IMG/VR virus record: IMGVR_UViG_3300033463_000022
Span: 22,542 to 86,541 of that record
Source: a virus
Lineage: Duplodnaviria; Heunggongvirae; Uroviricota; Caudoviricetes
Strand: one strand, 5' to 3'
Length of the DNA stretch: 64,000 nucleotides
Part shown: positions 2,385-55,326 of the stretch, one piece after another
Position numbering within the stretch: position 1 is the first letter of the stretch
Layout: each line of letters starts with the position of its first letter
Made by a program: the position numbers and the translations under genes
Notes under the pieces: model-generated
Told to the model about the DNA's origin: nothing
What the model saw: only the letters and a program-made list of their open reading frames with translations
The model's database searches: none

Positions 2385-2544
2385 CTTAATAAAATGAAAG
2401 GAGCCGTTAGTAATGGCTGATAAATCTTATAAGAAGCTTCCGGCTTCTGAGGTTCAAGGACTTCTCCAGTTAAGGCGAAGAGGCAGCGTAATAAAAGCAA
2501 AGAAAGGCAAGGGTTCTTACGTCCGTCATCCTAAGCATAGATAC

Positions 2545-2625
2545 GCCGCTGTCGCCAAAGTGGATAAGGCACCGGTCTTCTAAACCGGCATTTTCTTCGG
2601 GGTTCGAGTCCCCGCAGCGGTACCA
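2545..2625 (+). tRNA. candidate tRNA-Arg(TCT) with unusually long (9-nt) variable loop
   Basis: Acceptor GCCGCTG/CAGCGGT, anticodon stem CCGGT/ACCGG with loop CTTCTAA, T-arm CGGGG-TTCGAGT-CCCCG, A-CCA encoded; overlaps the 3' end of a 57-codon ORF (2413..2583). Confidence 0.35.
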
Positions 2626-2632
2626 TATTTGA

Positions 2633-2724
2633 AAGGCACATACAGCAAATATTTATATAGCATAATGGTAATGCAATCGTCTTCAAAACGATCTATGCGG
2701 TTCGAATCCGTCTTTTTGTGCCTT
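2633..2724 (+). ncRNA. tRNA-like structured RNA: framing stem AAGGCAC/GTGCCTT enclosing a D/anticodon/T-arm core whose anticodon loop reads UCA
   Basis: D-arm GCAT-AATGGTA-ATGC, hairpin ATCGT-CTTCAAA-ACGAT, T-arm GCGG-TTCGAAT-CCGT; 20-nt insert ATACAGCAAATATTTATATA between outer stem and D-arm. Confidence 0.4.
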
Positions 2725-2732
2725 GAATCTAT

Positions 2733-2808
2733 ACACAGGTAGCTCAGCTGGTAGAGTACGCGACTGATAATCGCGAGGTCGAGGGATCGTACCCCTCCCT
2801 GTGTACCA
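2733..2808 (+). tRNA. tRNA-Ile(GAT)
   Basis: Acceptor ACACAGG/CCTGTGT, anticodon stem CGCGA/TCGCG with loop CTGATAA, CCA encoded. Confidence 0.7.
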
Positions 2809-2930
2809 GAAACTGCTCGGATGGCCGTAGTCCCAGTCTGATCAACCGTGCAAGCGAGGAGCAGTATAATATAATATGGGCCTCCGCAGCCGAGGTAGGA
2901 CTCTCTCGTTTGCTGCATTTATAACTCTTT

Positions 2931-3004
2931 CGAGGACGGGGTGTGATGGTAGCACGCTGCGCTTGGGACGCAGAGGAGCAGTCCGATTCTGACGTCTTCG
3001 ACCA
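2931..3004 (+). tRNA. possible degenerate tRNA-Pro(TGG)
   Basis: Perfect anticodon arm CTGCG-CTTGGGA-CGCAG and acceptor CGAGGAC/GTCTTCG with A-CCA, but T-arm only 3 bp and D-arm spacing irregular. Confidence 0.25.
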
Positions 3005-3138
3005 GGCTAGTTATGGAACTGGCTAGTATGATTTTTACAGTTCTAGGCTAAAGGAGCAAATGAGCCTCCCGCTGATAGACGTATCAATGGGTGACAAAAT
3101 GGGCAGCGGACCCACGCGACTTAAACTGTGGGACGTAT

Positions 3139-3212
3139 GCGGGTATAGTATAGTGGTAGTACATTAGCTTGCCATGCTAAGGGCGCGGGTTCAATCCCCG
3201 CTACTCGCTCCA
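3139..3212 (+). tRNA. tRNA-Gly(GCC)
   Basis: Acceptor GCGGGTA/TACTCGC, D-arm GTAT-AGTGGTA-GTAC, stem TTAGC/GCTAA with loop TTGCCAT, T-arm GCGGG-TTCAATC-CCCGC, CCA encoded. Confidence 0.7.
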
Positions 3213-3246
3213 TCGACCTTCATGGTCAATCCCTCTCTCTCTTGAT

Positions 3247-3385
3247 TAGACTCATACAGCAAATTATACATATAGAAAATAAAAATTATAGTAAAAAGCT
3301 ATTTGGCTGCTTTTTATGACCCGATCCATGCGTCGAAGCAAGCGCGGTAGGGTGGGAGACAAAGCGCTACAGTTTCGTGAGTCTA
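3247..3385 (+). ncRNA. structured element closed by 8-bp stem TAGACTCA/TGAGTCTA, carrying the shared ATACAGCAAAT motif
   Basis: Inverted 8-mers enclose about 125 nt; 5' motif shared with elements at 2633, 4015 and 17566. Confidence 0.3.
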
Positions 3386-3399
3386 GCATTTATCCTTTA

Positions 3400-3445
3400 T
3401 TGACCTTTCTTAAAAAATATAATATAATATTTATAGAAAGATTGA
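3400..3445 (+). promoter_or_regulatory. sigma70-type promoter TTGACC-N17-TATAAT plus ATTTATAGAAAG
   Basis: Near-consensus -35/-10 with 17-nt spacer upstream of the 3465 ORF. Confidence 0.6.
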
Positions 3446-3464
3446 GAAAGGGAGTGTTCAAGAA

Positions 3465-3650
3465 ATGAAAGTTTATATGGGAGAATATTACAACCTCCCG
3501 AATCTTGGTCTTGTGCGCACCGTCGGCAAGGCTAGGAACTGCGAAACGTGCAAGACAATGATTATGTTCGTTACCGTCAAGGACGGCGGCATCGTGGGTG
3601 ACACGCTGCTGATCAACGAGGAAGATTTTATCAAAAGGATAGAGAAATGA
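3465..3650 (+). CDS. small hypothetical protein (61 aa, CxxC)
   Basis: ORF with AGGGAG RBS immediately downstream of a consensus promoter. Confidence 0.45.
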   Translation: MKVYMGEYYNLPNLGLVRTVGKARNCETCKTMIMFVTVKDGGIVGDTLLINEEDFIKRIEK

Positions 3651-3799
3651 ATCCCGACGGACAAGGCTTTGGCGTATGACAATTTACTAAAAGCGAGAGA
3701 CACTCGTATGACACGTGTCGTTTGAATCGCTGATGTTTATTGAACAGGACGGTGGGACGCGAAAAAAAACGCCGTAAGGCGCGGTGGTCGGGATTTTAT

Positions 3800-3876
3800 G
3801 CTCGCTTAGCTCAGCTGGTTAGAGCGCTTGGTTTACACCCATGAGGTCGCTGGTTCGAGTCCAGCAGCGAGTACCA
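3800..3876 (+). tRNA. tRNA-Val(TAC)
   Basis: Acceptor GCTCGCT/AGCGAGT, D-arm GCTC-AGCTGGTTA-GAGC, anticodon loop TTTACAC, T-arm GCTGG-TTCGAGT-CCAGC, CCA encoded. Confidence 0.6.
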
Positions 3877-4014
3877 GACGCGCGTATCTTGGCTTTGTAT
3901 AGAGTGTGACGTACTTAGCCTCGTAGAAAGCACACCTTACCAGCCTGAGGTAGAAAAGTGGCGGGTTTGGGACGCCCGCTAAAGAAAGGCAAAGTCCCAA
4001 TTATTGATTAGAAT

Positions 4015-4128
4015 AGGCGCACACAGCAAATTTTTACTGATAAAGTAATTTTTAGTGCATTGGTAGCACATTAGAATGTTTAATCTAAAAGAGTGGGTCC
4101 GAATCCCACAAAAATACTTTTTGCGTCT
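4015..4128 (+). ncRNA. tRNA-like RNA with an 8-nt anticodon loop (ATGTTTAA) and AT-rich acceptor-like stem, framed by outer stem AGGCGCA/TGCGTCT
   Basis: Core 4046..4117: TAATTTT-TA-GTGC-ATTGGTA-GCAC-A-TTAGA-ATGTTTAA-TCTAA-AAGA-GTGGG-TCCGAAT-CCCAC-AAAAATA-C; CACAGCAAAT motif in the 5' insert. Confidence 0.35.
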
Positions 4129-4282
4129 AGAATTGATTAAAAGCTGGAAGCAAGTCCTAGAGGGCGACGTCCTGCAGGCGGTTCGTACTGGGCAACCAGC
4201 TTTTACACAAAATTTGGTATGCCCTAGAAAATTGTAGGGCAAAATCTTATAAAGATGCCACAAGTTTTTTTATATATAATAG

Positions 4283-4368
4283 ACGGAGATGACCGAGTGG
4301 TTGAAGGTATCAGACTTTGAATCTGACAGGGAAACCTCGCGTGGGTTCGAATCCCGCTCTCCGCGCCA
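4283..4368 (+). tRNA. type II (Ser-like body, long variable arm) tRNA with anticodon UUG
   Basis: 3-bp D-stem with 11-nt loop GAGTGGTTGAA (Ser-like), stem TCAGA/TCTGA with loop CTTTGAA, T-arm GTGGG-TTCGAAT-CCCGC, A1.C72 mismatch, discriminator G, CCA encoded. Confidence 0.5.
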
Positions 4369-4396
4369 ATTATTTCGAATAAAGGAGAATATAAAA

Positions 4397-5321
4397 TGAC
4401 TTGTGGCATCTATAAAATTGAAAACAACATAAATCATAAGATTTATGTTGGACAATCTCGAAATATAGAGCGTCGTTGGCAAAAACATAAAGCTGCAAAT
4501 GAAGATTACGCGCTCCATAAAGCATTCTAGAAGTACGGAGTTGAAAATTTCACATTTTCTATCCTAGAAGAATGTGATGTTGATATGCTTGATGAACGAG
4601 AAATCTATTGGATAGGATATTTTGACTCTTATCATCAAGGATATAATGAAACTAAAGGCGGTCAAGGTACTTCTGGGCTAACGATGAAGCTTACTGAAGA
4701 TTAGGTTTCTATAATAAGAGAACTTTTAAGAACAACCAACAGAACGAATGCTGATATTGCTGATGAATTTGGTGTTTCAGAGAATGCTATTAGCGGCATA
4801 AATACTGGATATTATTGGAAAAATAATTAGATAGATTACCCCATCAGAAAACAAGTTACTCGTCCTAAAAGCACTAAAAGCACTTATTGCTTACGATGTG
4901 GGCATGAATTAAAATCTCATAGCTCAACTTACTGCCCTGAATGTGCAGCAATCATGAGACGAAAGGTTGAACGCCCTTCCAAAGAAGAGCTTCTAAAAGA
5001 ACTTCAAGAATCTCAAGGTGCCTTTACAGCGATAGGAAAGAAATATGGAGTGACAGATAACACTATCAGAAAATGGTGTTCTGCATACGAACTACCAACA
5101 CACACATCAGATTATAAAATAGTAGTAAAAGAGAAGAAAGGTAAAAACTTTCCACCTGTTCGGGTTTAGCAGATAGATAAGAAAACCGGTGAAGTAATTC
5201 GAGAATTTGAATCTTTATCTCAGGCTCAAAGAGAAACTGGAATTGATCACATTATTCCCGCTAGCGATCCCAATAATACCACTCGAAAGACCGCAGGCGG
5301 ATATATATGGCGAAGAATTTA
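4397..5321 (+). CDS. GIY-YIG homing endonuclease (308 codons, 4 in-frame TAG read as Gln)
   Basis: N-terminal GIYKIEN...YVGQS, KAF-Q-KYGVENF across a TAG, C-terminal NUMOD-like ...QQIDKKTGEVIREFESLSQA; RBS AAAGGAGAAT. Confidence 0.8.
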
Positions 5322-5671
5322 ATTCTTCTCTATAGGGAATTAGTATAACAGCAGTGCGCTAGGCTCTGAACCTAGAGGAGGAGGAGCGTCACCTTCATTC
5401 CCTGCCATTAAGGAGAATATCTCGCCTCCGTATGCTAAAATACGCTACCAAGAGAAATAGAGCGGTAAGGATAAGCACGCTCAGCGAGTTTAACAATAGT
5501 AAGGAAAGCAGGACGGTCGGAAATCGTCTATAAGTCTTTTCTATATAGTGACCAGCGGGATGTAGATCTAGAAAATCATCATTTAAAGAGTCGCTCTAAG
5601 GGCGCAATGAGCGTTTGGGTGAAAACCACACCTCTGGCGTTTGGCGGTAACGTAGAACCGCCACTTCCCTC

Positions 5672-5748: not shown

Positions 5749-5932
5749 TTAAGACGGTCACAGCAACAACTTTTCTGACAAGTATAAATCAGAGCCATTT
5801 TAACTTACCGTCTAGCTTTTATATAATGCCGCGAGCGGTAATGGTTTAGAAATTCTCCCTACAAATTCACAGTAGTCCTCGGGCGTGCCTGAAATGCCGA
5901 GCAATACGAGGGCCGCGGCTAAAATTTTATAT

Positions 5933-14271: not shown

Positions 14272-14381
14272 TGACGTTGAAAAGGTGACCGCCTTTAAAT
14301 TAAAAGCGGCCGCCTTTTCAATCTTTGCAATTATTAAAAAATTAATTTATAATATATTTAGAAAGTTAAAAGGAATGACTC

Positions 14382-14609: not shown

Positions 14610-14693
14610 AAATCTGGTCGATTAGTTTAACTAGCAAAATAAGGGATTTGTAACCCCTAGTCCTCGGAGCATCACCGAGATCGACCTCCAAAT

Positions 14694-15661: not shown

Positions 15662-15992
15662 CAAGTACAAGTTCTACACTGATGATCCGAAGAACCCGAC
15701 CAAGATCTACGCTGTTTCTACCTACGCCGGCAGAACTGTGCGTGGTGTTGCAAAGTGCGATCCTCGCGATAAGTTCTCTATGCAGCAGGGTAAGGAGCTT
15801 GCGGCCGCTCGTTGTGAGCTAAAGGTTGCTCAGAAGCGCAAGGCTCGTGCTATACGCTTGTTCGCCGAAGCTACTGCTCGTAAGGCGCAGGCTCTCAAGT
15901 ACGCCGACAAGATGGCTCAGTACGCAGCTGACGCTGATAATGCAGCTATTAACGCCGAAGATCGTATCAACACTCTTCTCGAAAAGATGTAA
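15642..15992 (+). CDS. hypothetical protein (116 aa, basic/Ala-rich C-terminus)
   Basis: GC-rich ORF with AAGGAG RBS. Confidence 0.4.
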   Translation: MKMYPIDKYKFYTDDPKNPTKIYAVSTYAGRTVRGVAKCDPRDKFSMQQGKELAAARCELKVAQKRKARAIRLFAEATARKAQALKYADKMAQYAADADNAAINAEDRINTLLEKM

Positions 15993-16029
15993 TTGCGGCC
16001 GCCGCCTAAAGCGGCGCCTATGCAGGATG

Positions 16030-16245
16030 AACCGGACAAGCGCGCCGGAACCGCCTTGAAAGCGGATTGTAGGGAAACCTATGGAGAGCATGCCTTCCGT
16101 CCTGCGCCATATATACAGCATTAACCAGACAAGCGTGCTGGGCTCGCCTCGAAAGCGAAGCGGAGGGAAACCTCTAGGGTGCAAGTCCTTAGTGCTGTGC
16201 CAGCCCGCGAGGGCAAATCGCGCGGACGAAGGATTGTCCGTAATA
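16030..16245 (+). promoter_or_regulatory. structured GC-rich 5' leader of the flagellin gene with two about 57-nt direct repeats carrying GGA motifs
   Basis: AACCGGACAAGCGCGCCGG...GTAGGGAAACCTATGGAG and AACCAGACAAGCGTGCTGG...GGAGGGAAACCTCTAGGG; SD AAGGAGGA also contains GGA. Confidence 0.4.
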
Positions 16246-16266
16246 TTTTTTAAGGAGGAATACATT

Positions 16267-17466
16267 ATGCGTATTCAACACAATGTCACCGCGATGAACA
16301 GCTATCGCAACTTCAACACCAACAACTCCAATCTCAGCAAGAACCTTGAGAAGCTCTCTTCTGGCTACAAGATCAACCGCGCTGGAGACGACGCCGCAGG
16401 TCTGGCAATCTCCGAGAAAATGCGTGCATAGATCACTGGCCTCGAGGGCGCAACCAAAAACGCCAAGGACGGCATTTCCCTTATCCAGACCGCAGAAGGC
16501 GCACTTACCGAGGTACATTCGATGCTCAACCGTATGACTACTCTTGCCGAGCAGTCTGCAAACGGCACTTATGATAACGACGTCGACCGTACCCAGCTCC
16601 AGAAGGAAGTAGATGCGCTCAAGACCGAAATCAACCGCATTGCCGATTCCACCAACTTCAACGGCATCAAGCTTCTTGATGGCAGCCTTGGTGGATGGAA
16701 CAACACCACCGATATCACCGATTCCATGACTTACACTAGCTTCGATGTTTCTGGCGGCAAGCTCAAGAACGGCGACGCAGTCACCGTTACTCAGAGCGCT
16801 AGCGGCATGGATATTAAGTCGGTCACCGTAGGCGGTGTGACTATCGCAAAGGCCGATCTGGCTGGTAAGGGTCTTACTTGGGAAGCAGATGCCGACAATC
16901 CCGCAGGGAAGACTGGCGCATATAAGTTTACTCTCAAGGTCTCTGACCGCTCCAAGGCAACTGCCGAAGTCGCCGACGCCATTGGCGAAGGTCTCTCGGT
17001 CGCTGTCAACGTAAAGGAGAAGGTTACCTCCAATACTGATCTCGCGTTCACCACTGATGGCACTGGCGGCGGTCTGACTCTTCAGATTGGCGATACCAGC
17101 GACGACTTCAACAAGATGAATGTTCTTGTTGGAGATATGCACACCCAGGCTCTGGGCATTGCTGATATTGATATCAGCACCCAGGAAGGTGCATCCAGCG
17201 CTATGGATCTTATCAAGAACGCTATCAACCAGGTCTCTGACACTCGTGGCGGTCTTGGTGCCCTCCAGAATCGTCTTGACCACACCATCAACAACCTCGG
17301 AACCATGCGCGAGAACATTCAGAACGCTGAGTCCAACATCCGCGATACTGACGTCGCAGAGGAAATGATGGCGTACACCAAGAACAACATTCTGAACCAG
17401 GCTGCTCAGGCTATGCTTGCGCAGGCGAATCAGATGCCTCAGGGCGTACTCCAGCTCCTTCAGTAA
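16267..17466 (+). CDS. fliC: flagellin (FliC/Hag family), 399 codons, 1 in-frame TAG read as Gln
   Basis: [16 protein letters not shown]...[51 protein letters not shown] and C-terminal [15 protein letters not shown]...[16 protein letters not shown]; the universal MRAQI Gln is encoded by TAG. Confidence 0.9.
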
Positions 17467-17565
17467 TACGCAAACTGCGGAGGGGCTTCAATGCCCCTCC
17501 AAAGTAAAAAATTTGCAATAATTAAAAAAATATTTTATAATATATTTGTAAGAATTAAGAAAGGC

Positions 17566-17674
17566 ACTTACAGCAATTATTTACATAATGTAAATGTCGT
17601 AGGTTCAACTCCTACTTCCGCCACGCGGCAGAATAGCTCAATGGATAGAGCGTTACAACTATATTTTGTGCCTT
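17566..17674 (+). ncRNA. circularly permuted tRNA-like (Y-RNA/YrlA-like) element framed by AAGGCAC/GTGCCTT
   Basis: Order is anticodon 3'-strand TGTAA, variable ATGTC, T-arm GTAGG-TTCAACT-CCTAC, acceptor 3' TTCCGCC, tight loop ACGC, acceptor 5' GGCAGAA, D-arm GCTC-AATGGATA-GAGC, anticodon 5'-strand TTACA; RNA ends sit in the anticodon-stem position and carry TTACAGCAAT. Confidence 0.4.
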
Positions 17675-17684
17675 GTTTGTATAA

Positions 17685-17758
17685 TCCGGCTTAGCATAAT
17701 AGTAGTGCAGGGGTCTCTAAAACCTCGGGACTCGGAGCGTAACCGAGAGCCGGTGCCA
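17685..17758 (+). tRNA. candidate amber-suppressor tRNA, anticodon CUA (reads UAG), with Gln-like identity elements
   Basis: Acceptor TCCGGCT/AGCCGGT (1:72 unpaired), D-arm GCAT-AATAGTA-GTGC, stem GGGGT/ACCTC with loop CTCTAAA, T-arm CTCGG-AGCGTAA-CCGAG, discriminator G73, CCA encoded; D and T loops noncanonical. Confidence 0.5.
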
Positions 17759-17813
17759 TCGCAAGCAAGGTTACTATCTCTATCAGTAGCCTTGCTTTTT
17801 TCTTTTTATATCT

Positions 17814-17889
17814 CCGTCGGTAGCCAAGTTGGTAAGGCACCGCACTTTTAATGCGGGTATCGCGGGTTCAAGTCCCGCCCGACGGACCA
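17814..17889 (+). tRNA. tRNA-Lys(TTT)
   Basis: Acceptor CCGTCGG/CCGACGG, stem CCGCA/TGCGG with loop CTTTTAA, T-arm GCGGG-TTCAAGT-CCCGC, A-CCA encoded. Confidence 0.7.
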
Positions 17890-17893
17890 ATAT

Positions 17894-17969
17894 GCGGGTG
17901 TAACTTAATTGGCAGAGTAGCGGTCTCTTAAACCGAAGGTTGCAGGTTCAACTCCTGTCACCCGCACCA
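17894..17969 (+). tRNA. tRNA-Lys(CTT)
   Basis: Acceptor GCGGGTG/CACCCGC, anticodon loop CTCTTAA, T-arm GCAGG-TTCAACT-CCTGT, A-CCA encoded. Confidence 0.65.
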
Positions 17970-17976
17970 AATAAAT

Positions 17977-18055
17977 GTCAGCGTACCCGAAGAGGCGAAC
18001 GGGCCGGTCTGCAAAACCGTGATTTCCACCGCGGGTTCGATTCCCGCCGCTGACT
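17977..18055 (+). tRNA. tRNA-Cys(GCA) candidate with long variable region
   Basis: Acceptor GTCAGCG/CGCTGAC, anticodon loop CTGCAAA, T-arm GCGGG-TTCGATT-CCCGC; no encoded CCA. Confidence 0.45.
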
Positions 18056-18132
18056 CGGTCACAAGAGTATGCCTTCTCGTGGCGTGACTGTTTTTACCAA
18101 ATACTCAATATTAGATAAGGAGCTGTTTAATT

Positions 18133-18795
18133 ATGGCATACATCTATTAGATTACTAATGATGTAAACGGAAAAATTTATATAGGTAAGACAACGCTTCC
18201 TACTATAGAAGAACGATTTAAATAGCACTGTAGAGATAGTAAAAGGACACGGTGCGAAAAGCGTCCGCTTTATGATGCAATGAATAAATATGGCATTGAA
18301 CATTTTCATATTGAGGAGCTTGAAAAAGTTGACGATATAACAAAATTAGAAGATCGTGAAACCTATTGGATAGAACAAAAATGTTCTTTTAAAGAGGGGT
18401 ATAACGCCACAATGGGTGGAGATGGAACGCCGTATATAGATAGGCAAATGGTAGCAAAACTGTGGTCAGAAGGTTTAACTTGTAAGGCAATTGCCGTTTT
18501 AACAAAACATGATGCCGGTAGTATTAGTAAAATACTAAAAACTGAAAATATAGCCACAGCTAAAGAAATCCAAGAAAACGGAATAAAAAGTTTAAAGAAA
18601 CCTGTTTGTCAAATCGATCCATCAACAGGAGATATTGTGGCAGTTTTTAATTGCTTACGAGATGCTAGCAAAGCGATGCTTGAATAGGGGTTTACTCATT
18701 GTCAGGTTAGTACTGGAGCCACCCATATTAGTCAAGTTTGCGCTGGCAAACGTAAAACATTTGCCAGCTTCGCTTGGAAGCTATTAAATATTTAA
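18133..18795 (+). CDS. GIY-YIG homing endonuclease (220 codons, 3 TAG)
   Basis: MAYIY-Q-ITNDVNGKIYIGKTT...YWIEQK; C-terminal helix-turn-helix-like repeats. Confidence 0.75.
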
Positions 18796-18822: not shown

Positions 18823-20343
18823 ATGAACACTTTGCTTAAGTCCATGAAAGAGTCTCAGAACTATAAGTTGACCGAGAACGGTGGCGTTTCCTACAAGTCC
18901 ACCCTGTCCGGTCTGCTCGACCTGTTCGCGATGGGCGGCTCCTATCGTTCTCGCTCTGACGACGACTGTATCCTCTTGTTCAAGAAGGCTTTCGCAGAGG
19001 ACGAAGTGCACGCATTGCGTTGCCTCTTCTACCTTCGTGACTGCCGCGGCGGCCAGGGTGAGCGTCGCTTCTTCCGCGTTGTCATGAAGTGGCTGGCTAA
19101 CGAGAACACCGAGGCTGCTCGTCGTAACCTTGAACACGTTCCTGAGTTCGGCCGCTGGGATGACCTCTACGCTTTCCTCGGCACTCCGCTCGAGCGTGAG
19201 GCTATGGGAATGATCCGGCACCAGCTCGCTCTGGACGTTCAGTGCAAGACCCCGTCTCTGCTCGCCAAGTGGCTGCCGTCCGAAAACGCTTCGTCTCTCA
19301 AGACTCGCGCTCTTGCTACGAAGACTCGTCGCTTCCTGATGATGACCTCGAAGCAGTACCGTAAGGTTCTGTCTACGCTTCGTAAGCGCATCAACGTCCT
19401 TGAGCGTCTTATGAGTGAGGGCCGTTGGGACGAGATCGAGTTCGATAAGATTCCGTCTAAGGCGGGCCTTATCTACCGCAACGCCTTTGCTCGTCACGAC
19501 GTAGAGCGTGCCAAGAACGAGAACGTCCAGACCTATGCTGACTTCGCTAAGGATAAGACCACTAAGGTCAACGCAGAGACTCTCTATCCTTGCGATGTTG
19601 TGCATAAGGCTCTTGGCACTCGTAGCTACTGGGGCGGACATCAATCCGCGATGGATGCGACTGAGCGCGCTATGTTGAATAAGTACTGGGATAATCTTCA
19701 CGATTACTTCCAGAACGCTGTGTTCAACGGTGTTGCTGTTGTTGATACGTCCAGTTCCATGTGGAGCTGTCGCGGCAACGTGAAGGTTGCTCCTATGGAC
19801 GTGGCATGCGCCCTGGGTATGTACTGCGCTGAGAAGTGCAATCCGAACAGTCCGTGGCACGGTCACTACATCAGCTTCTCTCACCAGGCTCGTCTTGTTG
19901 AGATTGAGGGTGTAGACTTCGTGGATAAGGTTCGCCGCATCCGCGACCACGACCTCTGCGAGAACACCAACATCGAGAGCGTGTTCGAGCTTATCCTCAG
20001 CCTCGCGGTGAAGAACCGCGTTCCGCAGAAGGATATGCCTAAGAACATCGTCATTATCTCCGATCTCGAATTCGATGAGGCTCAGGGGTACGATCGTCGT
20101 TCCAATGAGACCGTTATGGAAAAATGGGTTCGGAAATATGAGGAGTGCGGATATACTTGCCCTAAGATTGTCTTCTGGAATGTTGATTGTCGAAATGACA
20201 ATATTCCCATGAAAGACAACGGCAATGTCACTTTTGTGTCGGGGTATAGTCCCTCCCTTTTCGAGCAGCTCCTTACCGGCAAAACCGGTTTGGATTTCGT
20301 GCTCGATAAGCTCGACAGCGAAAGATACTCCTGTATCCGCTAA
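18823..20343 (+). CDS. TROVE-like plus vWA (MIDAS) domain protein, Ro60/Rsr-like; GC-rich and TAG-free
   Basis: N-terminal pattern NGGVSYKSTLSGLLDLF..GGSY and RDCRGGQGER resembles the Ro60 TROVE N-terminus; MIDAS VAVVDTSSSM...IVIISDLEFD; strong RBS AAGGAGAATGAAAG-ATG; GC content far above flanks. Confidence 0.55.
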   Translation: MNTLLKSMKESQNYKLTENGGVSYKSTLSGLLDLFAMGGSYRSRSDDDCILLFKKAFAEDEVHALRCLFYLRDCRGGQGERRFFRVVMKWLANENTEAARRNLEHVPEFGRWDDLYAFLGTPLEREAMGMIRHQLALDVQCKTPSLLAKWLPSENASSLKTRALATKTRRFLMMTSKQYRKVLSTLRKRINVLERLMSEGRWDEIEFDKIPSKAGLIYRNAFARHDVERAKNENVQTYADFAKDKTTKVNAETLYPCDVVHKALGTRSYWGGHQSAMDATERAMLNKYWDNLHDYFQNAVFNGVAVVDTSSSMWSCRGNVKVAPMDVACALGMYCAEKCNPNSPWHGHYISFSHQARLVEIEGVDFVDKVRRIRDHDLCENTNIESVFELILSLAVKNRVPQKDMPKNIVIISDLEFDEAQGYDRRSNETVMEKWVRKYEECGYTCPKIVFWNVDCRNDNIPMKDNGNVTFVSGYSPSLFEQLLTGKTGLDFVLDKLDSERYSCIR

Positions 20344-22437: not shown

Positions 22438-22742
22438 TGCCTCGAATGAGTGGACATAGCAAGGAGCGCTCCGTCGAGCGAGTAGATGGCGTTGATAATT
22501 TCTCCGACGCCCGCAAGTATGCTAAGCAAGCTTGGCAGAGCGGGAACACAATTAATCACTATATTAAATATCCCAAGTTTTTTAGTTATCTGCAAAACAA
22601 AAAGAATCAAACATGTACTTGCTCATTAAGAATTTATAAGGATAATATTTATATATGGAGAGGACGATTGAGGACACTTGTAACTGTCCATCCAATACCC
22701 GATAGATATATTAAAGAAATGGAAGTGATAGATAATGGCTAA
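22437..22742 (+). CDS. hypothetical protein (101 aa)
   Basis: Translationally coupled (TAATG). Confidence 0.4.
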   Translation: MPRMSGHSKERSVERVDGVDNFSDARKYAKQAWQSGNTINHYIKYPKFFSYLQNKKNQTCTCSLRIYKDNIYIWRGRLRTLVTVHPIPDRYIKEMEVIDNG

Positions 22743-25061: not shown

Positions 25062-26444
25062 ATGTCTGAACACGTCGGTTATATCGTGAAGGTTGAATTC
25101 CTTCGTCCGCACTCTAACGCTGATCGCCTCAATATTCTCACCGTTTTCGGCGAAGATACCTGTGTTTCTAAGGAAGTTCAGGTTGGCGATATCGGCATCT
25201 ATTTCCCTTGCGATCTCCAGCTGAGCGAGGAGTACTGCGACCAGAACCACCTTTGCCGCAAGAAGGCAGATGGTACTCCCGATACTGGTTATCTTGAGCG
25301 CAACACTCGTCATGTGACCGCCATCAAGCTCCGCGGTGAGAAGTCTAGCGGTCTCTATATGCCTCTCTCTTCTCTTGCTTACTGCGGCAACGCTTCCTTT
25401 GAGGTCGGTCAGAAGATCGACATGGTGAACGGTCATGAAATCTGCCGCAAGTATATCCCCCGTTCTAACACCCGCCAGGGGCAGGTTAGCGAGGGCAACC
25501 GCACTCGCAAAAAGCGCGTGCCTTTGGCGCCTCTCTTCGCTGAGCACGCTGACACTGAGCAGCTTGCTTACAACCTGGCAGCCTTTAAGCCTGGTGACCT
25601 CGTTGAGATCACCTTGAAGATGCACGGCACTTCTCAGCGTACTGGCTACCTGCCTAAGTACTCTGGCGAAAAGCGCACCTTCTGGCAGAAGCTGTTCAAT
25701 AAGCCTGGCACTCCTATCTACGACTGGGGTTATGTAACCGGCACTCGCCGCACCGTACTTAACGACTTCGACGAGGGCGGCTTCTATGGCAACAACGAGT
25801 TCCGTTCGGGCCCCGCCAAGTTCTTCGAGGGTAAGTTGGAGAAGGGTGAAACTGTCTACTACGAAGTCGTAGGTTTCACCACTTCTGGTGCGCCTATCAT
25901 GGCTTCTCAGTCCAACAAGCAGGTTGATAAGCTTCTTGGCGACAAGAGCTTCTCTCAGAAGTACGGCGAGACTACAGTCTTCTCCTATGGTTGCACTCCG
26001 GACGGTGATCTCCAGCAGGACTTCTATGTCTACCGCATGACCTTCACCAACGAGGATGGCTTCGTCGTAGAGTATACTCCCGACTTCATGCGCTATCGTT
26101 GCGAGCAGATGGGAGCTAAGTGCGTACCGCTGCTTTGGAAGGGATTTATTCCAAAGACGCCAAAGCGTTATCCATCCAATGAAGATGGCCTCACCTTCCG
26201 CGAGGAAGAGTGTAGCGCTGGCGAGTATGTTAAGGCAATCGCCGAGGAATACTTCGACGGTCCCGACCCTGTCGGTAAGACCCACGTTCGCGAGGGCGTT
26301 GTCTGCCGTATCGTAAATCGTCCGAAGTTCTGCGCCTACAAGCACAAGAACTTCTCCTTCAAGGTGCTCGAAGGCCTCATTAAGGAGAACGCGCAGGCTC
26401 CTGACATGGAAGAAGCCGAAGATATCAAGAGCGATGAAATCTAG
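25062..26444 (+). CDS. Rnl2-family ATP-dependent RNA ligase fused to an N-terminal tRNA-binding OB domain; GC-rich, TAG-free
   Basis: Nucleotidyltransferase motif I EITLKMHGTSQRTG matches T4 Rnl2 KIHGTN; N-terminal VKVEFLRPHSNADRLNIL resembles the Myf/CsaA tRNA-binding fold. Confidence 0.65.
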   Translation: MSEHVGYIVKVEFLRPHSNADRLNILTVFGEDTCVSKEVQVGDIGIYFPCDLQLSEEYCDQNHLCRKKADGTPDTGYLERNTRHVTAIKLRGEKSSGLYMPLSSLAYCGNASFEVGQKIDMVNGHEICRKYIPRSNTRQGQVSEGNRTRKKRVPLAPLFAEHADTEQLAYNLAAFKPGDLVEITLKMHGTSQRTGYLPKYSGEKRTFWQKLFNKPGTPIYDWGYVTGTRRTVLNDFDEGGFYGNNEFRSGPAKFFEGKLEKGETVYYEVVGFTTSGAPIMASQSNKQVDKLLGDKSFSQKYGETTVFSYGCTPDGDLQQDFYVYRMTFTNEDGFVVEYTPDFMRYRCEQMGAKCVPLLWKGFIPKTPKRYPSNEDGLTFREEECSAGEYVKAIAEEYFDGPDPVGKTHVREGVVCRIVNRPKFCAYKHKNFSFKVLEGLIKENAQAPDMEEAEDIKSDEI

Positions 26445-27048
26445 CTATAAACAAATAGCTTGCGGCGGCATGGTTGCTGGCTTCCTCATAGGGTGCGCAG
26501 CTGCTGCTAGTACCCTCGCCGCCGCAAGCCTTCCCTTTCTAAAACCCCTCATTTTTCCCTTCGCTCTTCTCTTGATTTGTTATGGCAGATTCCATTTATT
26601 TACAGGAAACCTCTATAAAATTGGAAGAGATGAGTCTCTGTCCGCAATAACTAAATATAACTTACTTGCACTTAACTACATTTCCAATTTGCTAGGAACT
26701 TTTTTGACGAGCCTTCTCATAAAAGTTCCAACAGAAGCAATGATGTTTGATAAAGCAGCGCTCGGCGCAAGGAAGATTTTTTTCTTAGGCATCGGTTGTA
26801 ATATCCTCGTATGTTTAGGTGTTAAGCTCTTTAAAGTCTCTCCTTTCGCTACCTATTGTTGCACTGCTTTGTTTGTAGCTTGCGGATTCGAGCACTCTAT
26901 AGCGGATATGTATTATGCGCTATGTCTTCCATTCTCTTGGTCGTATCTCCTAGGTTTTGGTTCTGTAGTAGTGGTTGTGACTGCTGGTAATATAATAGGT
27001 GCTTTTATTGTGATTTTAATAGAAAGGATAATGGAACATGACTCTTGA
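26434..27048 (+). CDS. polytopic membrane protein (204 aa)
   Basis: Five or six hydrophobic helices. Confidence 0.45.
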   Translation: MKSSYKQIACGGMVAGFLIGCAAAASTLAAASLPFLKPLIFPFALLLICYGRFHLFTGNLYKIGRDESLSAITKYNLLALNYISNLLGTFLTSLLIKVPTEAMMFDKAALGARKIFFLGIGCNILVCLGVKLFKVSPFATYCCTALFVACGFEHSIADMYYALCLPFSWSYLLGFGSVVVVVTAGNIIGAFIVILIERIMEHDS

Positions 27049-28277: not shown

Positions 28278-28451
28278 GGGTATTGAGTGGATATTTCTTC
28301 ACAAAGCGCAATGGAATAGTTCCTGTCCCTCCCGACCATCTTGCCGTAATCAACCTCGCTCCGAAAACTTATTTTAATAATTTTGACCGTTCAATTGAAG
28401 AGAATGCTGACCTGCGTGGTTATATGTTTTTGATAGAAGGTGAGGATAAAG

Positions 28452-28964
28452 ATGACTCGTGAATTAAGAATTCTGGTAGGCGTGCCTGGAGTAGGAAAGT
28501 CTACTTGGGCGAAGCGTGAAGCGGCATGTCTCGATGCCGATGGATGGTCTACTGCTATCATCAGTCGCGACAAGATCCGTTTCCGCTTGCTCGACGAAAA
28601 TCCGACCGACGATTACTTTGCCTACGAGAATCAGGTATTCAAGGAGTTTGTTGACGAAATCAATGAATGCCTGTATCTTGGTGTTGATTACATATTTGCT
28701 GATGCCACTCACATCTCCTACAATTCGCGTGCTAAGCTGCTGCGTCAGTTGAAGATTGACCCCGACGTCGCGATTCGCTTCGATGTGTTCGACCTCCCTC
28801 TTGAAGTGGTACTTTATCGCAATAGTCTCCGTGAAGGGCGTGAATGCGTACCCGTCAAGGCTGTGAAGAACATGGTAGCTGCTTTTAAGACGCCCACTTT
28901 CCTCGAAACTGAAGATTGCGGCTTGAAGAATGACGTTTGTATTGTGAAGCACAGTAAGGAGTGA
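28452..28964 (+). CDS. polynucleotide 5'-kinase (T4 Pnk kinase-domain-like)
   Basis: P-loop ILVGVPGVGKSTWAK and CVPVKAVKNM parallel T4 Pnk GCPGSGKSTWA and VPIDVLRSM; RBS GGTGAGGATAAAG. Confidence 0.65.
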   Translation: MTRELRILVGVPGVGKSTWAKREAACLDADGWSTAIISRDKIRFRLLDENPTDDYFAYENQVFKEFVDEINECLYLGVDYIFADATHISYNSRAKLLRQLKIDPDVAIRFDVFDLPLEVVLYRNSLREGRECVPVKAVKNMVAAFKTPTFLETEDCGLKNDVCIVKHSKE

Positions 28965-28968
28965 AGCT

Positions 28969-29532
28969 ATGAATAAAATTTTTCTTACCTCAGATCTCCA
29001 TTTTATGCACGATCGGGAGTTCATCTGGGGTCCTCGCGGTTTCAAGAACGTTCAAGAAATGAACGAAGCGATCGTCAAGCGGGCCTGGGAAGTTATGGAA
29101 GCCAATGATGACCTCTATATTCTTGGCGACCTAATGCTCAAGGACGATGAAATGGGCTTAAAACTCATTAACCAGATGCCTGGCCGCAAGTTCATTGTCG
29201 CAGGGAACCACGATACCGATAGTCGAATTAATAAGTATATTGAACAGGTGTCTGGCCTCGAAGCGATTCAATACGCAATGAGACTTAAATACAACGGTTA
29301 TCACTTTTTTCTCACTCACTTTCCTTGTCTGACTGGCAATCTTGAACATGAATCCTTAAAGCAGACCACTTGTAACCTCTTCGGTCATACGCACTCGAAA
29401 GATAAGTTCTATCAAGATATCCCTTATATGTATAACGTAGCGGTTGACGCTCATGACTGCTATCCCGTCTCGATCGACGAGATTATTGAAGATATGGAAG
29501 CAAAAGTAAAAGAATGTAAGGAGATGCTTTGA
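28969..29532 (+). CDS. metallophosphoesterase (candidate 2',3'-phosphatase partner of the kinase)
   Basis: DLHFMHD, ILGDLM and GNHD motifs; directly downstream of the kinase. Confidence 0.6.
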   Translation: MNKIFLTSDLHFMHDREFIWGPRGFKNVQEMNEAIVKRAWEVMEANDDLYILGDLMLKDDEMGLKLINQMPGRKFIVAGNHDTDSRINKYIEQVSGLEAIQYAMRLKYNGYHFFLTHFPCLTGNLEHESLKQTTCNLFGHTHSKDKFYQDIPYMYNVAVDAHDCYPVSIDEIIEDMEAKVKECKEML

Positions 29533-39798: not shown

Positions 39799-40485
39799 AT
39801 GGGGTTTATTTATAAAATAAGTTGTCCATATTCTTCAAAAGTCTATATTGGACAAACTATCAATTCAATATAGACGCGATTTCAATAGCATATTAGACGA
39901 GACAGCGGAACAAAACTCGCTTAGGCGTTTCAAAAATATGGAATCGAATCATTTAGCGTTGATTTAGTAGAAGAAGTCGACAACGAACGATTAAATGAGC
40001 GTGAAATTTTTTGGATCAGTCATTATGATTCATATAACCATGGCTATAATATGACTCCTGGCGGACAAACAACGGTTTATGCAGTAGAGCAAACAAAAAA
40101 AGCCGTAGAAAAACGAGACAAAGATACCTTTGAATTATTAGCGGTATATCCTTCTTTAGCCGAAGCAGCTAGAAGTTTAGGACTAGAGGGCGCAGAAAAT
40201 AAACGAAAAAATTTAACAAAATGCTGTCATCGAGAAATCCATGAAATCTATGGTTTCAGATGGAACTTTGTTGGAGAACCGCCTGATACAATAAAAATGG
40301 GCATGGTTAGAAGAATTCCTGTTTATATGTGCGATAAAAACACAAAAGAAATCTTGCAAAAATTTGATAGCGCAAAAGCGGCTAGTATTTATTTGGGTAA
40401 AATAAATGGAAGCCAAATTACTGCCTGTTGCAAGAAGCGTATTCCCAGTGCTTATGGGTATTTTTGGAGATATGTAAATGAATAA
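39799..40485 (+). CDS. GIY-YIG homing endonuclease inserted between the two topoisomerase II subunit genes (228 codons, 3 TAG)
   Basis: MGFIYKISCPYSSKVYIGQT...YWISHYDSYNHGYN plus two repeated IYGFRW/AYGYFWRY helix motifs. Confidence 0.75.
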
Positions 40486-54477: not shown

Positions 54478-55326
54478 ATGTTAAAAAGCATCTATAAAAT
54501 TACCAATACCCTAAATAACAAATGCTACATCGGTCAAACAGATGACGTAAAACGTAGATTTACTGAGCATAAAGCTCTAGGGTATGGTCGAGAAAATTCC
54601 ATTTTATATCGCGCTATCAAAAAATACGGTCTTGAGAATTTTACATTTGAAGTAATTGAAGAGAATATTGAAAATTATAACGAAAGAGAAAAATATTGGA
54701 TTGCATATTATGATTCATATTAGAGTGGCTACAATATGACACCAGGTGGAGAAGAGCCTCCAGTGAAATATGGAGAAAATCATCCTCTTGCAACGCACTC
54801 AAAAGCCGAATCCGAGGAAGTAAAAAATCTGTTACTGGCAACTCAAATGACCGTAAAAGAAATCGCTCAAAAGATGGCATATAACGTTTCTTCTATCATA
54901 AGAATTAATAATGGAGCACTTTGGCATGATGATACACTCGATTATCCGCTTAGAAAAGAATTAAGTAAAAAATTCAACGAAGACCGTGCATTAAGAATAA
55001 TTGATGACTTGCTAAATACAAGTATGACCCAGAGAGAAATTGCCGTTAAATACGGAGTAGGACGCTCTACAGTAACAGCCATAAACAATGGTTAGAATAA
55101 TAGGCAAGATGATTTAGAGTATCCAATTCGAGATAAAGATAGAGATAAATAGTCAAAACATATTTTTATGATAGATAAAGACACTGACGAAATTCTTAAA
55201 GATTTTGTTAATGCCAAAGAAGCGGCTCGCTATCTTGGCGATGCCGGTATGGCAACTGCATTACAAACATGCGCAAGGGGGAATTCAAGAACTTCCCATG
55301 GATATAAATGGAGATATAAAGAATGA
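54478..55326 (+). CDS. GIY-YIG homing endonuclease (282 codons, 3 TAG)
   Basis: MLKSIYKITNTLNNKCYIGQTDD...KYWIAYYDSY-Q-SGYNMTPGG; C-terminal NUMOD-like repeats. Confidence 0.75.

Follow-up and report, generated by a model that had tools for sequence, protein, structure and literature searches.

What do tRNA-like loci framed by inverted stems do inside the tRNA array of a phage? The question is raised by a 64,000-nucleotide stretch of Caudoviricetes DNA (IMG/VR record IMGVR_UViG_3300033463_000022, positions 22,542 to 86,541; referred to throughout as the window). In it, a preliminary description had pointed out four such loci with a shared motif, and had offered three functions for them, namely Y-RNA-like partners of a Ro60-like protein, decoys for host anticodon nucleases, or noncanonical decoding tRNAs. 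We report here that these loci, together with a fifth one, belong to a structured RNA family which is genomically linked to genes of the Pfam DUF2828 family, and that the DUF2828 protein of the window has a Ro60-like fold. Among the three functions, partnership with the Ro60-like protein is the best fit to the fold, the linkage and an alignment to the known Y-RNA family YrlA. In our assessment the five elements are likely to be small non-coding RNAs of a modular Y-RNA-like family, which act as partners of the DUF2828 Ro60-like protein and display parts of tRNAs.

Five framed elements in the window

Five elements were identified in the window, all on the + strand, at 2633-2725, 3247-3386, 4014-4130, 5751-5815 and 17561-17675. 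They share a common layout, in which the 5' and 3' ends pair into a terminal stem in all five cases. A closing helix of 7-9 bp is followed, 0-2 nt inside it, by an unpaired ACAGCAA(A/U)N that adjoins the 5' arm, and an unpaired G stands after the 3' arm. The four loci described earlier are all present, with the bracketing stems given for them (AAGGCACA/TGTGCCTT, TAGACTCAT/GTGAGTCTA, TAGGCGCA/TGCGTCTA with one G-U pair, and AAGGCAC/GTGCCTT); their number has to be corrected, as the copy at 5751-5815 had been overlooked, and the motif, which had been called a leader, sits in an internal loop of the RNA. The exact sequence ACAGCAAAT occurs three times in the window (2642, 3256 and 4023, all +), and the copy at 17570 reads ACAGCAATT. 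Taken alone, the motif is weak evidence, because the 9-mer at one mismatch shows no window-wide enrichment (21 found against 20.5 expected).

Element 1 (2633..2725, +) is closed by the helix AAGGCACA/UGUGCCUU (in DNA AAGGCACA/TGTGCCTT, 2633-2724), and carries the ACAGCAAAU loop and the trailing G. Its core follows the tRNA order of D arm, anticodon arm and T arm without an acceptor stem of its own, and 18 unpaired nt separate the closing helix from the D arm. The 7-nt anticodon loop is CUUCAAA, which bears out the UCA anticodon read earlier, and the T loop is UUCGAAU; Rfam tRNA (RF00005) matches at 2651-2720 with 40.9 bits, the gathering score being 29. In the homologous element of locus L062, the frame, the D arm and the T arm are kept, the anticodon stem has changed in a compensatory manner, and the anticodon has turned from UCA into UGU.

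Element 3 (4014..4130, +) has the helix UAGGCGCA/UGCGUCUA with one G-U pair (in DNA TAGGCGCA/TGCGTCTA, 4014-4129), the same ACAGCAAAU and the trailing G. A small hairpin precedes a full tRNA-like domain with a 6-7 bp A/U acceptor-like stem, the 3' side of which continues into the closing helix and leaves no free chargeable end. The 8-nt anticodon loop (AUGUUUAA) and the all-A/T acceptor of the preliminary description were recovered as the ARAGORN loop and the A/U stem. The T loop, CCGAAUC, is aberrant and lacks the U54-U55 consensus. Rfam tRNA matches at 4046-4117 with 46.6 bits (gathering score 29), ARAGORN calls tRNA-??? with anticodon gttt, and the element folds with z = -2.8.

Element 4 (17561..17675, +) is a circularly permuted tRNA mimic of the YrlA type, its permuted core having been noticed before. 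Inside the helix AAGGCAC/GUGCCUU (17561-17674) follow ACAGCAAUU, a hairpin, a T arm, a closed acceptor-like stem and a D arm, with the G trailing, and this order of arms is exactly the layout of YrlA. The stretch 17561-17677 aligns to all 114 positions of Rfam YrlA (RF02553) with 34.8 bits, compared with a gathering score of 69, and the element folds with z = -2.95. In the orthologue found in two relatives (L206/L207), the module is kept and the whole acceptor-like stem is replaced in a compensatory manner.

Element 2 (3247..3386, +; helix UAGACUCAU/GUGAGUCUA, in DNA TAGACTCAT/GTGAGTCTA, 3247-3385; ACAGCAAAU and trailing G) encloses 110 nt, an AU-rich stretch and then a GC-rich hairpin region, which is not tRNA-like and has no Rfam match. 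The tRNA-shaped cores claimed earlier thus hold for the loci at 2633 and 4014 (Rfam tRNA) and 17561 (YrlA alignment), and not for this one. Element 5 (5751..5815, +; helix AGACGGU/ACCGUCU, in DNA AAGACGGTC-ACAGCAAC...ACCGTCTAG) has ACAGCAAC, a short one-hairpin core and a trailing AG. A blastn search against all fetched loci returned homologues for element 4 (L206/L207) and element 1 (L062), and none for elements 2 and 5.

The Rfam scan of the window at gathering thresholds gave tRNAs only, and permissive scans of 2400-4400, 17400-18100 and 15950-16290 added nothing beyond the sub-threshold YrlA match. When 2400-4400 was compared with GenBank phages by blastn, ordinary tRNAs alone were found; the RNA family is too short and variable for BLAST.

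A conserved and covarying RNA family

For comparison, 80 viral contigs were used that encode homologues of the DUF2828 protein of the window (54-68% identity), each oriented on that gene. Of ACAGCAA[AT]T there are 117 copies on the strand of the gene, compared with 10 on the opposite strand. In these 80 loci and the window, 171 of the 307 ACAGCAA sites on the + strand (56%) are followed by a closing stem of at least 7 bp and then G, compared with 5.9% when the 206 nt downstream were shuffled. A looser scan (5' signature AGR[CT], closing stem of at least 6 bp) returned 146 elements on the + strand and 2 on the - strand, and a near-identical scan gave 0-7 matches in each shuffled replicate. These stricter definitions replaced an initial loose stem scan (7 bp with G-U pairs, span up to 220 nt), which was too permissive (425 on + against 185 on -). 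Related viral contigs contain hundreds of copies of the module.

The conserved 5' sequence is (A)AGRC-N2-5-ACAGCAA(A/U)N, and in about 94% of the elements the 3' arm is directly followed by G. The closing helix itself covaries. Its fifth pair is AU in 45, UA in 32, GC in 27 and CG in 16 cases, and its outermost pair, which the scan did not demand, is AU in 79, UA in 20 and GC in 7. The wobble count (16 G-U against 8 A-C) is suggestive of the RNA strand without being decisive.

Two classes of interior, represented by 17 sequences each, were aligned with MAFFT and folded with RNAalifold. For the YrlA-type class, with element 4 and three cultured phages among its members, this recovered the closing helix along with the T, acceptor-like and D helices, and 18 of the 21 pairs show compensatory changes. 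Here 93.6% of the cells are paired, against 35-45% with slid partners, and the covariation of 0.70 compares with at most 0.19 for slid partners and was reached by none of 500 shuffles. The tRNA-order class, which includes elements 1 and 3, has compensatory changes in 16 of 22 pairs, and its consensus contains a closing, a D, an anticodon and a T helix but no acceptor helix. Motif and stems are both conserved in the comparative data, and with this covariation and conservation across very distant phages the earlier picture of a structured tRNA-like RNA family, with framing stems and a common motif, is upheld.

Besides the YrlA-type and the tRNA-order interiors without acceptor, there are elements with a T arm only, elements with an anticodon arm only, and others. 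In a census of 243 unique convincing elements, an anticodon-arm-like hairpin was found in 102 (28 +/- 4 in shuffles) and a T-arm hairpin in 98. The tRNA-Lys loop CUUUUAA is present in its exact form 16 times, where shuffles give 0.1, and the next commonest loops are CUGAUAA (Ile, 7) and CUGUAAA (Tyr, 6).

A longer variant was also observed in several of the loci (L001 at about 810-970, L003-L006, L010, L050 and L076/L077), with AAAGACCGUA-ACAGCAAUC followed by a T arm and 'ACUCCCCGCC'. It has no closing stem within 200 nt and may be a larger family member; ARAGORN detected no tmRNA (transfer-messenger RNA), permuted or otherwise, in the long L001 variant.

Linkage to the gene of a Ro60-like protein

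Loci were also picked by DNA alone, in a scan of IMG/VR for the 18-nt AAGACNNNTACAGCAAAT. It gave 120 loci, about half of the matches being chance coding matches, and true elements were present in 71 of them. A DUF2828 homologue (23-65% identity) lies in the fetched piece of 26 of these 71 element loci and of none of the 49 chance loci (Fisher p = 1.4e-7).

The association extends to cultured phages. Homologues of the DUF2828 protein are encoded in at least 704 GenBank phage records, and in six of the seven cultured phages checked, unannotated elements lie on the same strand within 3 kb of the DUF2828 gene. Bacillus phage MrDarsey has six, located in and after the tRNA array within 2.7 kb upstream of the gene, and Listeria phage LP-048 has three in tandem within 340 nt upstream. 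In the Escherichia coli Felixounavirus heid, four elements stand 0.3-1.1 kb downstream (L203 13713-14480). Three occur within 300 nt downstream in Mycobacterium phage Enceladus, in a 17-kb stretch with no annotated tRNA genes, and three directly downstream in Staphylococcus phage SEP9, where the nearest annotated tRNA is about 2 kb off. Campylobacter phage F357 has two directly upstream. Constant across these phages are CAGCAA, its place beside the helix and the trailing G, whereas the helix sequence varies. An Enceladus element scores 39.8 bits as Rfam YrlA (gathering score 69).

In the window, the DUF2828 gene (18823..20343, +) encodes a protein of 506 aa when TAG is read as Gln, with the Pfam domains DUF2828 and DUF7788, and element 4 lies 1.1 kb upstream of it. 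The likeness of this protein to Ro60 was revealed by the fold search and not by sequence searches; phmmer against PDB sequences returned no match, and hence no Ro60. An AlphaFold2 model was built on 36 homologues, with a predicted local distance difference test (pLDDT) score of 77. The best 11 matches of this model in a Foldseek search of the PDB are all Ro60/TROVE proteins, aligned over the full length (about 520-590 columns) with E values of 2e-7 to 3e-4, at modest template modelling scores of 0.28-0.45. They comprise the Ro60 of phage phiLo (9kop, 9l5y), Deinococcus radiodurans Rsr (2nvo) and Xenopus and human Ro60, 1yvr being among the matches. The protein is modelled as a Ro60/TROVE ring of HEAT repeats with a C-terminal vWA domain, and a DxSxS motif (D308-T-S-x-S312), resembling the metal ion-dependent adhesion site of vWA domains, is invariant in the 36 homologues.

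Genes reminiscent of RNA repair follow 5-10 kb downstream of the DUF2828 gene, all on the + strand. These are an RNA ligase-like gene (25062-26450, weak matches below Pfam cut-offs), an AAA_33 kinase gene (28440-28964, Pfam) and a metallophosphatase gene (28969-29532). In the relative L205, RNA_lig_T4_1, Metallophos and AAA_33 are likewise encoded downstream of the DUF2828 gene.

Relation to known Y RNAs and to phage stable RNAs

In known Y RNAs, a terminal stem of the 5' and 3' ends flanks a bulge with the protein-contact motif, and both orders of the T and D arms are known (PMC4201824, PMC12135203). The Ro60-contact motif is GNCGAAN0-1G on the 5' strand, being GGUCCGA in vertebrates and CGAA in phage (PMC4201824, PMC12135203). 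YrlA (RF02553; PMC4201824) resembles the present family in its paired ends, its conserved unpaired motif beside the stem and its tRNA-mimicking second module, as well as in its genes, which stand beside a Ro60-type protein gene and near RNA-repair genes. The YrlA order of T arm, closed acceptor-like stem and D arm is shared by element 4 alone; elements 1 and 3 have D-anticodon-T, and elements 2 and 5 have neither. Unlike YrlA, the family carries ACAGCAA(A/U)N in place of GNCGAAN0-1G, reaches only about half of the gathering threshold, and has a DUF2828 rather than a Pfam TROVE partner. It also occurs in many copies per genome, inside tRNA arrays and with interchangeable interiors (anticodon arms, tRNA bodies and non-tRNA cores). 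Since the motif and Rfam tests fail and the partner family differs in sequence, we regard these RNAs as a distinct DUF2828-associated Y-RNA-like family and not as YrlA members.

Elements 1 and 3 share their non-permuted order, D before T, with Yrn1 of D. radiodurans (PMC4201824). The Thermus phage phiLo offers a further parallel, as its Yrl1 and Yrl2 are phage RNAs with a terminal stem and motif bulge encoded beside a Ro60 gene (PMC12135203), and the phage Ro60 binds phage-encoded RNAs in a complex with host PNPase (PMC12135203). Yrn1 and the phiLo RNAs differ from the family in having the CGAA motif, true TROVE Ro60 partners and one or two RNAs per genome, with no anticodon-arm display described.

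Phage T5 has several "stable RNAs with unknown functions" (NC_005859), annotated as RNAIII, RNAI, RNA1, RNA2H, RNAIV, RNA2 and RNA3 (L208 30284-33949). They are likewise small, in some cases tRNA-like, located within a tRNA array, and in several cases framed by terminal stems. However, they lack the ACAGCAA module and were rejected as family members. Neither an ACAGCAA element nor an annotated DUF2828 gene is present in the first 50 kb of T5, a stretch that includes all 24 tRNAs of this phage. The T5 RNAs are probably unrelated or an analogous solution.

Ro-like phage proteins have been noted before. In Bas63, the Ro60-like gp130 is encoded directly upstream of tRNA genes and is needed to counter the Ppl defence (bioRxiv 10.1101/2024.10.10.617714), and its authors only speculated that some "tRNA genes" are Y RNAs, no RNA partner being identified (bioRxiv 10.1101/2024.10.10.617714). 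Phage heid belongs to the same genus, Felixounavirus, and its vWFA/DUF2828 gene is likewise upstream of tRNA genes. This sister phage supplies concrete RNA candidates in its four elements, so that where the partners of a protein needed against defence have so far been guessed at, sequence-defined candidates can be named if gp130 is a DUF2828 member. Phage LeBron gp53 (Ro-like), gp85 (RNA ligase) and gp74 (PNK) have similarly been noted in the literature without an RNA partner.

No description of the present RNAs was found in the searchable literature, although an earlier listing of some YrlA-type members beside phage Ro-like genes is possible. The family is apparently both large and undescribed.

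A proposed role for the RNAs

If the elements are Y-RNA-like partners of the DUF2828 protein, the ends of the transcript would pair into the 7-9 bp closing helix, and the constant module, i.e., the helix, the unpaired and near-invariant ACAGCAA(A/U)N and the trailing G, would be the binding site of the protein. Such a site would be analogous to the terminal stem and GNCGAA/GGUCCGA bulge of Y RNAs recognised by Ro60. The variable interior would then display a tRNA or a piece of one, in the form of a permuted T/closed acceptor/D core, a body without chargeable end, or just an anticodon arm or a T arm by itself, and the RNA-protein particle would show these look-alikes to tRNA-binding factors. 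Two uses can be envisaged. The RNA may serve as a tether between the Ro-like protein and tRNA-binding factors, in the way that Y RNAs connect Ro60 with PNPase; or the RNAs may soak up host anticodon nucleases as part of the protection of translation by the phage.

The decoy option would be compatible with the many anticodon-arm mimics, and it is attractive because mimics of the Lys-UUU anticodon arm are abundant. PrrC and RloC target tRNA-Lys. The same tRNA is a reported target of PARIS AriB (PMC11464382). An extended form of the idea, to which we give modest credence and which we think more doubtful than not, is that DUF2828 phages keep a "library" of decoy RNAs on one protein scaffold against tRNA-targeting defence nucleases, each element offering a different tRNA part. 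The parts displayed would be mostly the tRNA-Lys UUU anticodon arm, but also Ile, Tyr, Asn and Gln arms and whole bodies, and candidate targets would be PrrC/RloC-type anticodon nucleases, PARIS AriB and Cas13 collateral activity. The Ro-like ring might capture, hold or pass the cleaved decoy or damaged tRNA to the phage RNA ligase, kinase and phosphatase. If this were true, hundreds of cultured phages, with relatives of Felix O1, P100/A511 and LeBron among them, would possess an anti-defence system that is RNA-based, general and programmable.

Several points weigh against a Y-RNA-like partnership. The DUF2828 protein (18823-20343) has no Pfam TROVE match, only DUF2828 and DUF7788, and the canonical Ro60-contact motif (GNCGAAN0-1G or CGAA) is absent from the elements, of which the two YrlA matches, with 34.8 and 39.8 bits, score about half of the gathering threshold of 69. 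Elements 2 and 5 contain no recognisable tRNA part, and Aeromonas phage Ah1 has no element within 6 kb of its DUF2828 gene. The helix statistics are partly circular, because the scan by which some of the aligned sequences were chosen required a closing stem; this circularity is limited to the closing helix, while the other helices and the shuffle test are unaffected. We infer the transcription and processing of the elements, their direct binding by the protein and their tether or decoy function. Genomic linkage is no proof of binding, and the module could bind a conserved host factor instead.

Even with these reservations, the Y-RNA-like reading offers candidates whose signature is simple (a closing helix, then ACAGCAA(A/U)N, and a G that trails) and that can be mutated, pulled down or deleted in tractable phages; the elements are widespread, so far unannotated and directly testable in model phages. 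If correct, it would open the Y RNA concept, with its one or two RNAs per genome, to modular sets of many copies that show chosen tRNA parts, and would account for some places in phage tRNA arrays that are left unannotated or carry odd "tRNA" or "pseudo-tRNA" calls. It also ties Ro60 biology to the question of how phages survive tRNA-targeting immunity.

Alternative explanations

The module may bind a conserved host factor, such as PNPase, an RNase or an enzyme that processes or modifies tRNA, in which case the DUF2828 protein and the elements would share no more than their regulation within one anti-defence or RNA-repair locus. Conservation of the module across phages of four host phyla (Actinobacteria, Firmicutes, Proteobacteria and Campylobacterota) makes a universal host partner conceivable, and bacterial and phage Y RNAs also contact PNPase (PMC12135203). 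However, the linkage to DUF2828 is tight in very different contexts, including the 17-kb mycobacteriophage stretch devoid of annotated tRNA genes, the protein has the Ro60 fold, and RNAs with a terminal stem and bulge are known Ro60 ligands. We therefore hold this explanation to be unlikely.

The majority of copies are located between tRNA genes and on the strand of these genes, often within 10-20 nt of the next tRNA, as would be expected if they were processing or stability cassettes, a kind of "punctuation" of polycistronic tRNA-array transcripts that is read by RNases and has no role in trans. Punctuation, though, would have no need of elaborate covarying tRNA-mimic interiors, and it is at odds with the tandem triplets beside the DUF2828 gene in Enceladus and SEP9, away from annotated tRNAs, as well as with the large T5 tRNA array, which has none of the elements. 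We consider this explanation quite unlikely.

The third function offered by the preliminary description was noncanonical decoding. Elements 1 and 3 would then be functional tRNAs, a UCA opal suppressor and a four-base frameshift suppressor, freed by RNase P and RNase Z. Both do exceed the gathering score of Rfam tRNA, element 3 has its A/U acceptor-like stem, and the phage already recodes TAG via a suppressor tRNA. This reading is nevertheless very improbable, because an acceptor end that could be charged is missing, TGA serves as an ordinary stop and homologues differ in their anticodon. The class consensus lacks an acceptor stem, the 3' end is locked in the closing helix, and element 1 has its 18 unpaired nt before the D arm. 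TGA ends 13 of the 43 genes of the window (TAA the other 30), the L062 homologue keeps the frame with the anticodon UGU, and the T loop of element 3 departs from consensus. Moreover, YrlA of Mycobacterium smegmatis is cleaved and CCA-added, so that such processing need not mean decoding (PMC4201824).

DNA-level repeats, whether miniature mobile elements with terminal inverted repeats or recombination sites, would fit several copies per genome framed by inverted repeats but can be practically dismissed, as the arms differ between copies and yet stay complementary (G-U pairs included), strand specificity is strict (146 versus 2), the interiors are unrelated between copies, and the module is kept between phages whose partner proteins share only 23-40% identity.

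Genomic setting and further observations

A sigma-70-like promoter (TTGCAA-17-TATAAT, 17513..17541, +), identified by consensus match and present in the same arrangement in L206, has its predicted start about 10-15 nt upstream of element 4. Directly 3' of element 4, and apparently under the same promoter, lies a suppressor tRNA with anticodon CUA (17685-17758, +; "Pyl" in ARAGORN), followed by two tRNA-Lys and a tRNA-Cys. A CUA tRNA after a YrlA-type element is also seen in L206/L207. A strong promoter-like block, TTGCAA(T)AATTAAAAAA-N-TATAATATAT(T)TAGAAAG, recurs at 2144-2172, 3400-3428, 14325-14360 and 17513-17541, 5' of clusters of tRNA and Y-like RNA genes and of some open reading frames (ORFs), and resembles a phage-specific extended promoter consensus.

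TAG is a sense codon in this phage, with 65 in-frame occurrences in 43 ORFs of the window and none as a stop; in the flagellin, an in-frame TAG stands at a conserved Gln position. The 17 tRNAs called by ARAGORN are all encoded on the + strand and cluster at 0.1-6 kb, around 14.7 kb and between 17.7 and 18.1 kb. Three Rfam tRNA matches have no ARAGORN call, 5334-5404 (43.9 bits), 14616-14687 (42) and 2932-3000 (36.8). They are without the ACAGCAA module and may add to the aberrant or tRNA-like genes.

A flagellin-like protein and a FliD-like filament cap (Pfam FliD_N/FliD_C), encoded at 16269-17466 and 1213-2139, are unusual phage cargo. In L206/L207, a flagellin gene is likewise found just 5' of the Y-like RNA. 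Between an ORF and the flagellin gene of the window, at 15995-16230, there are two tandem GC-rich units of about 65 nt each (…CAAGCG..GG…GAAAGCG…GGGAAACC…), which stand out against the otherwise AT-rich intergenic style; the permissive Rfam scan of 15950-16290, which covers them, returned no match. Finally, ORFs resembling GIY-YIG-type homing endonucleases (N-terminal IYxIxN, recognised by eye) are scattered among the tRNA and replication genes at 4396-5322, 18133-18795, 39799-40485 and 54478-55326, and the one at 4396-5322 has in-frame TAG codons.

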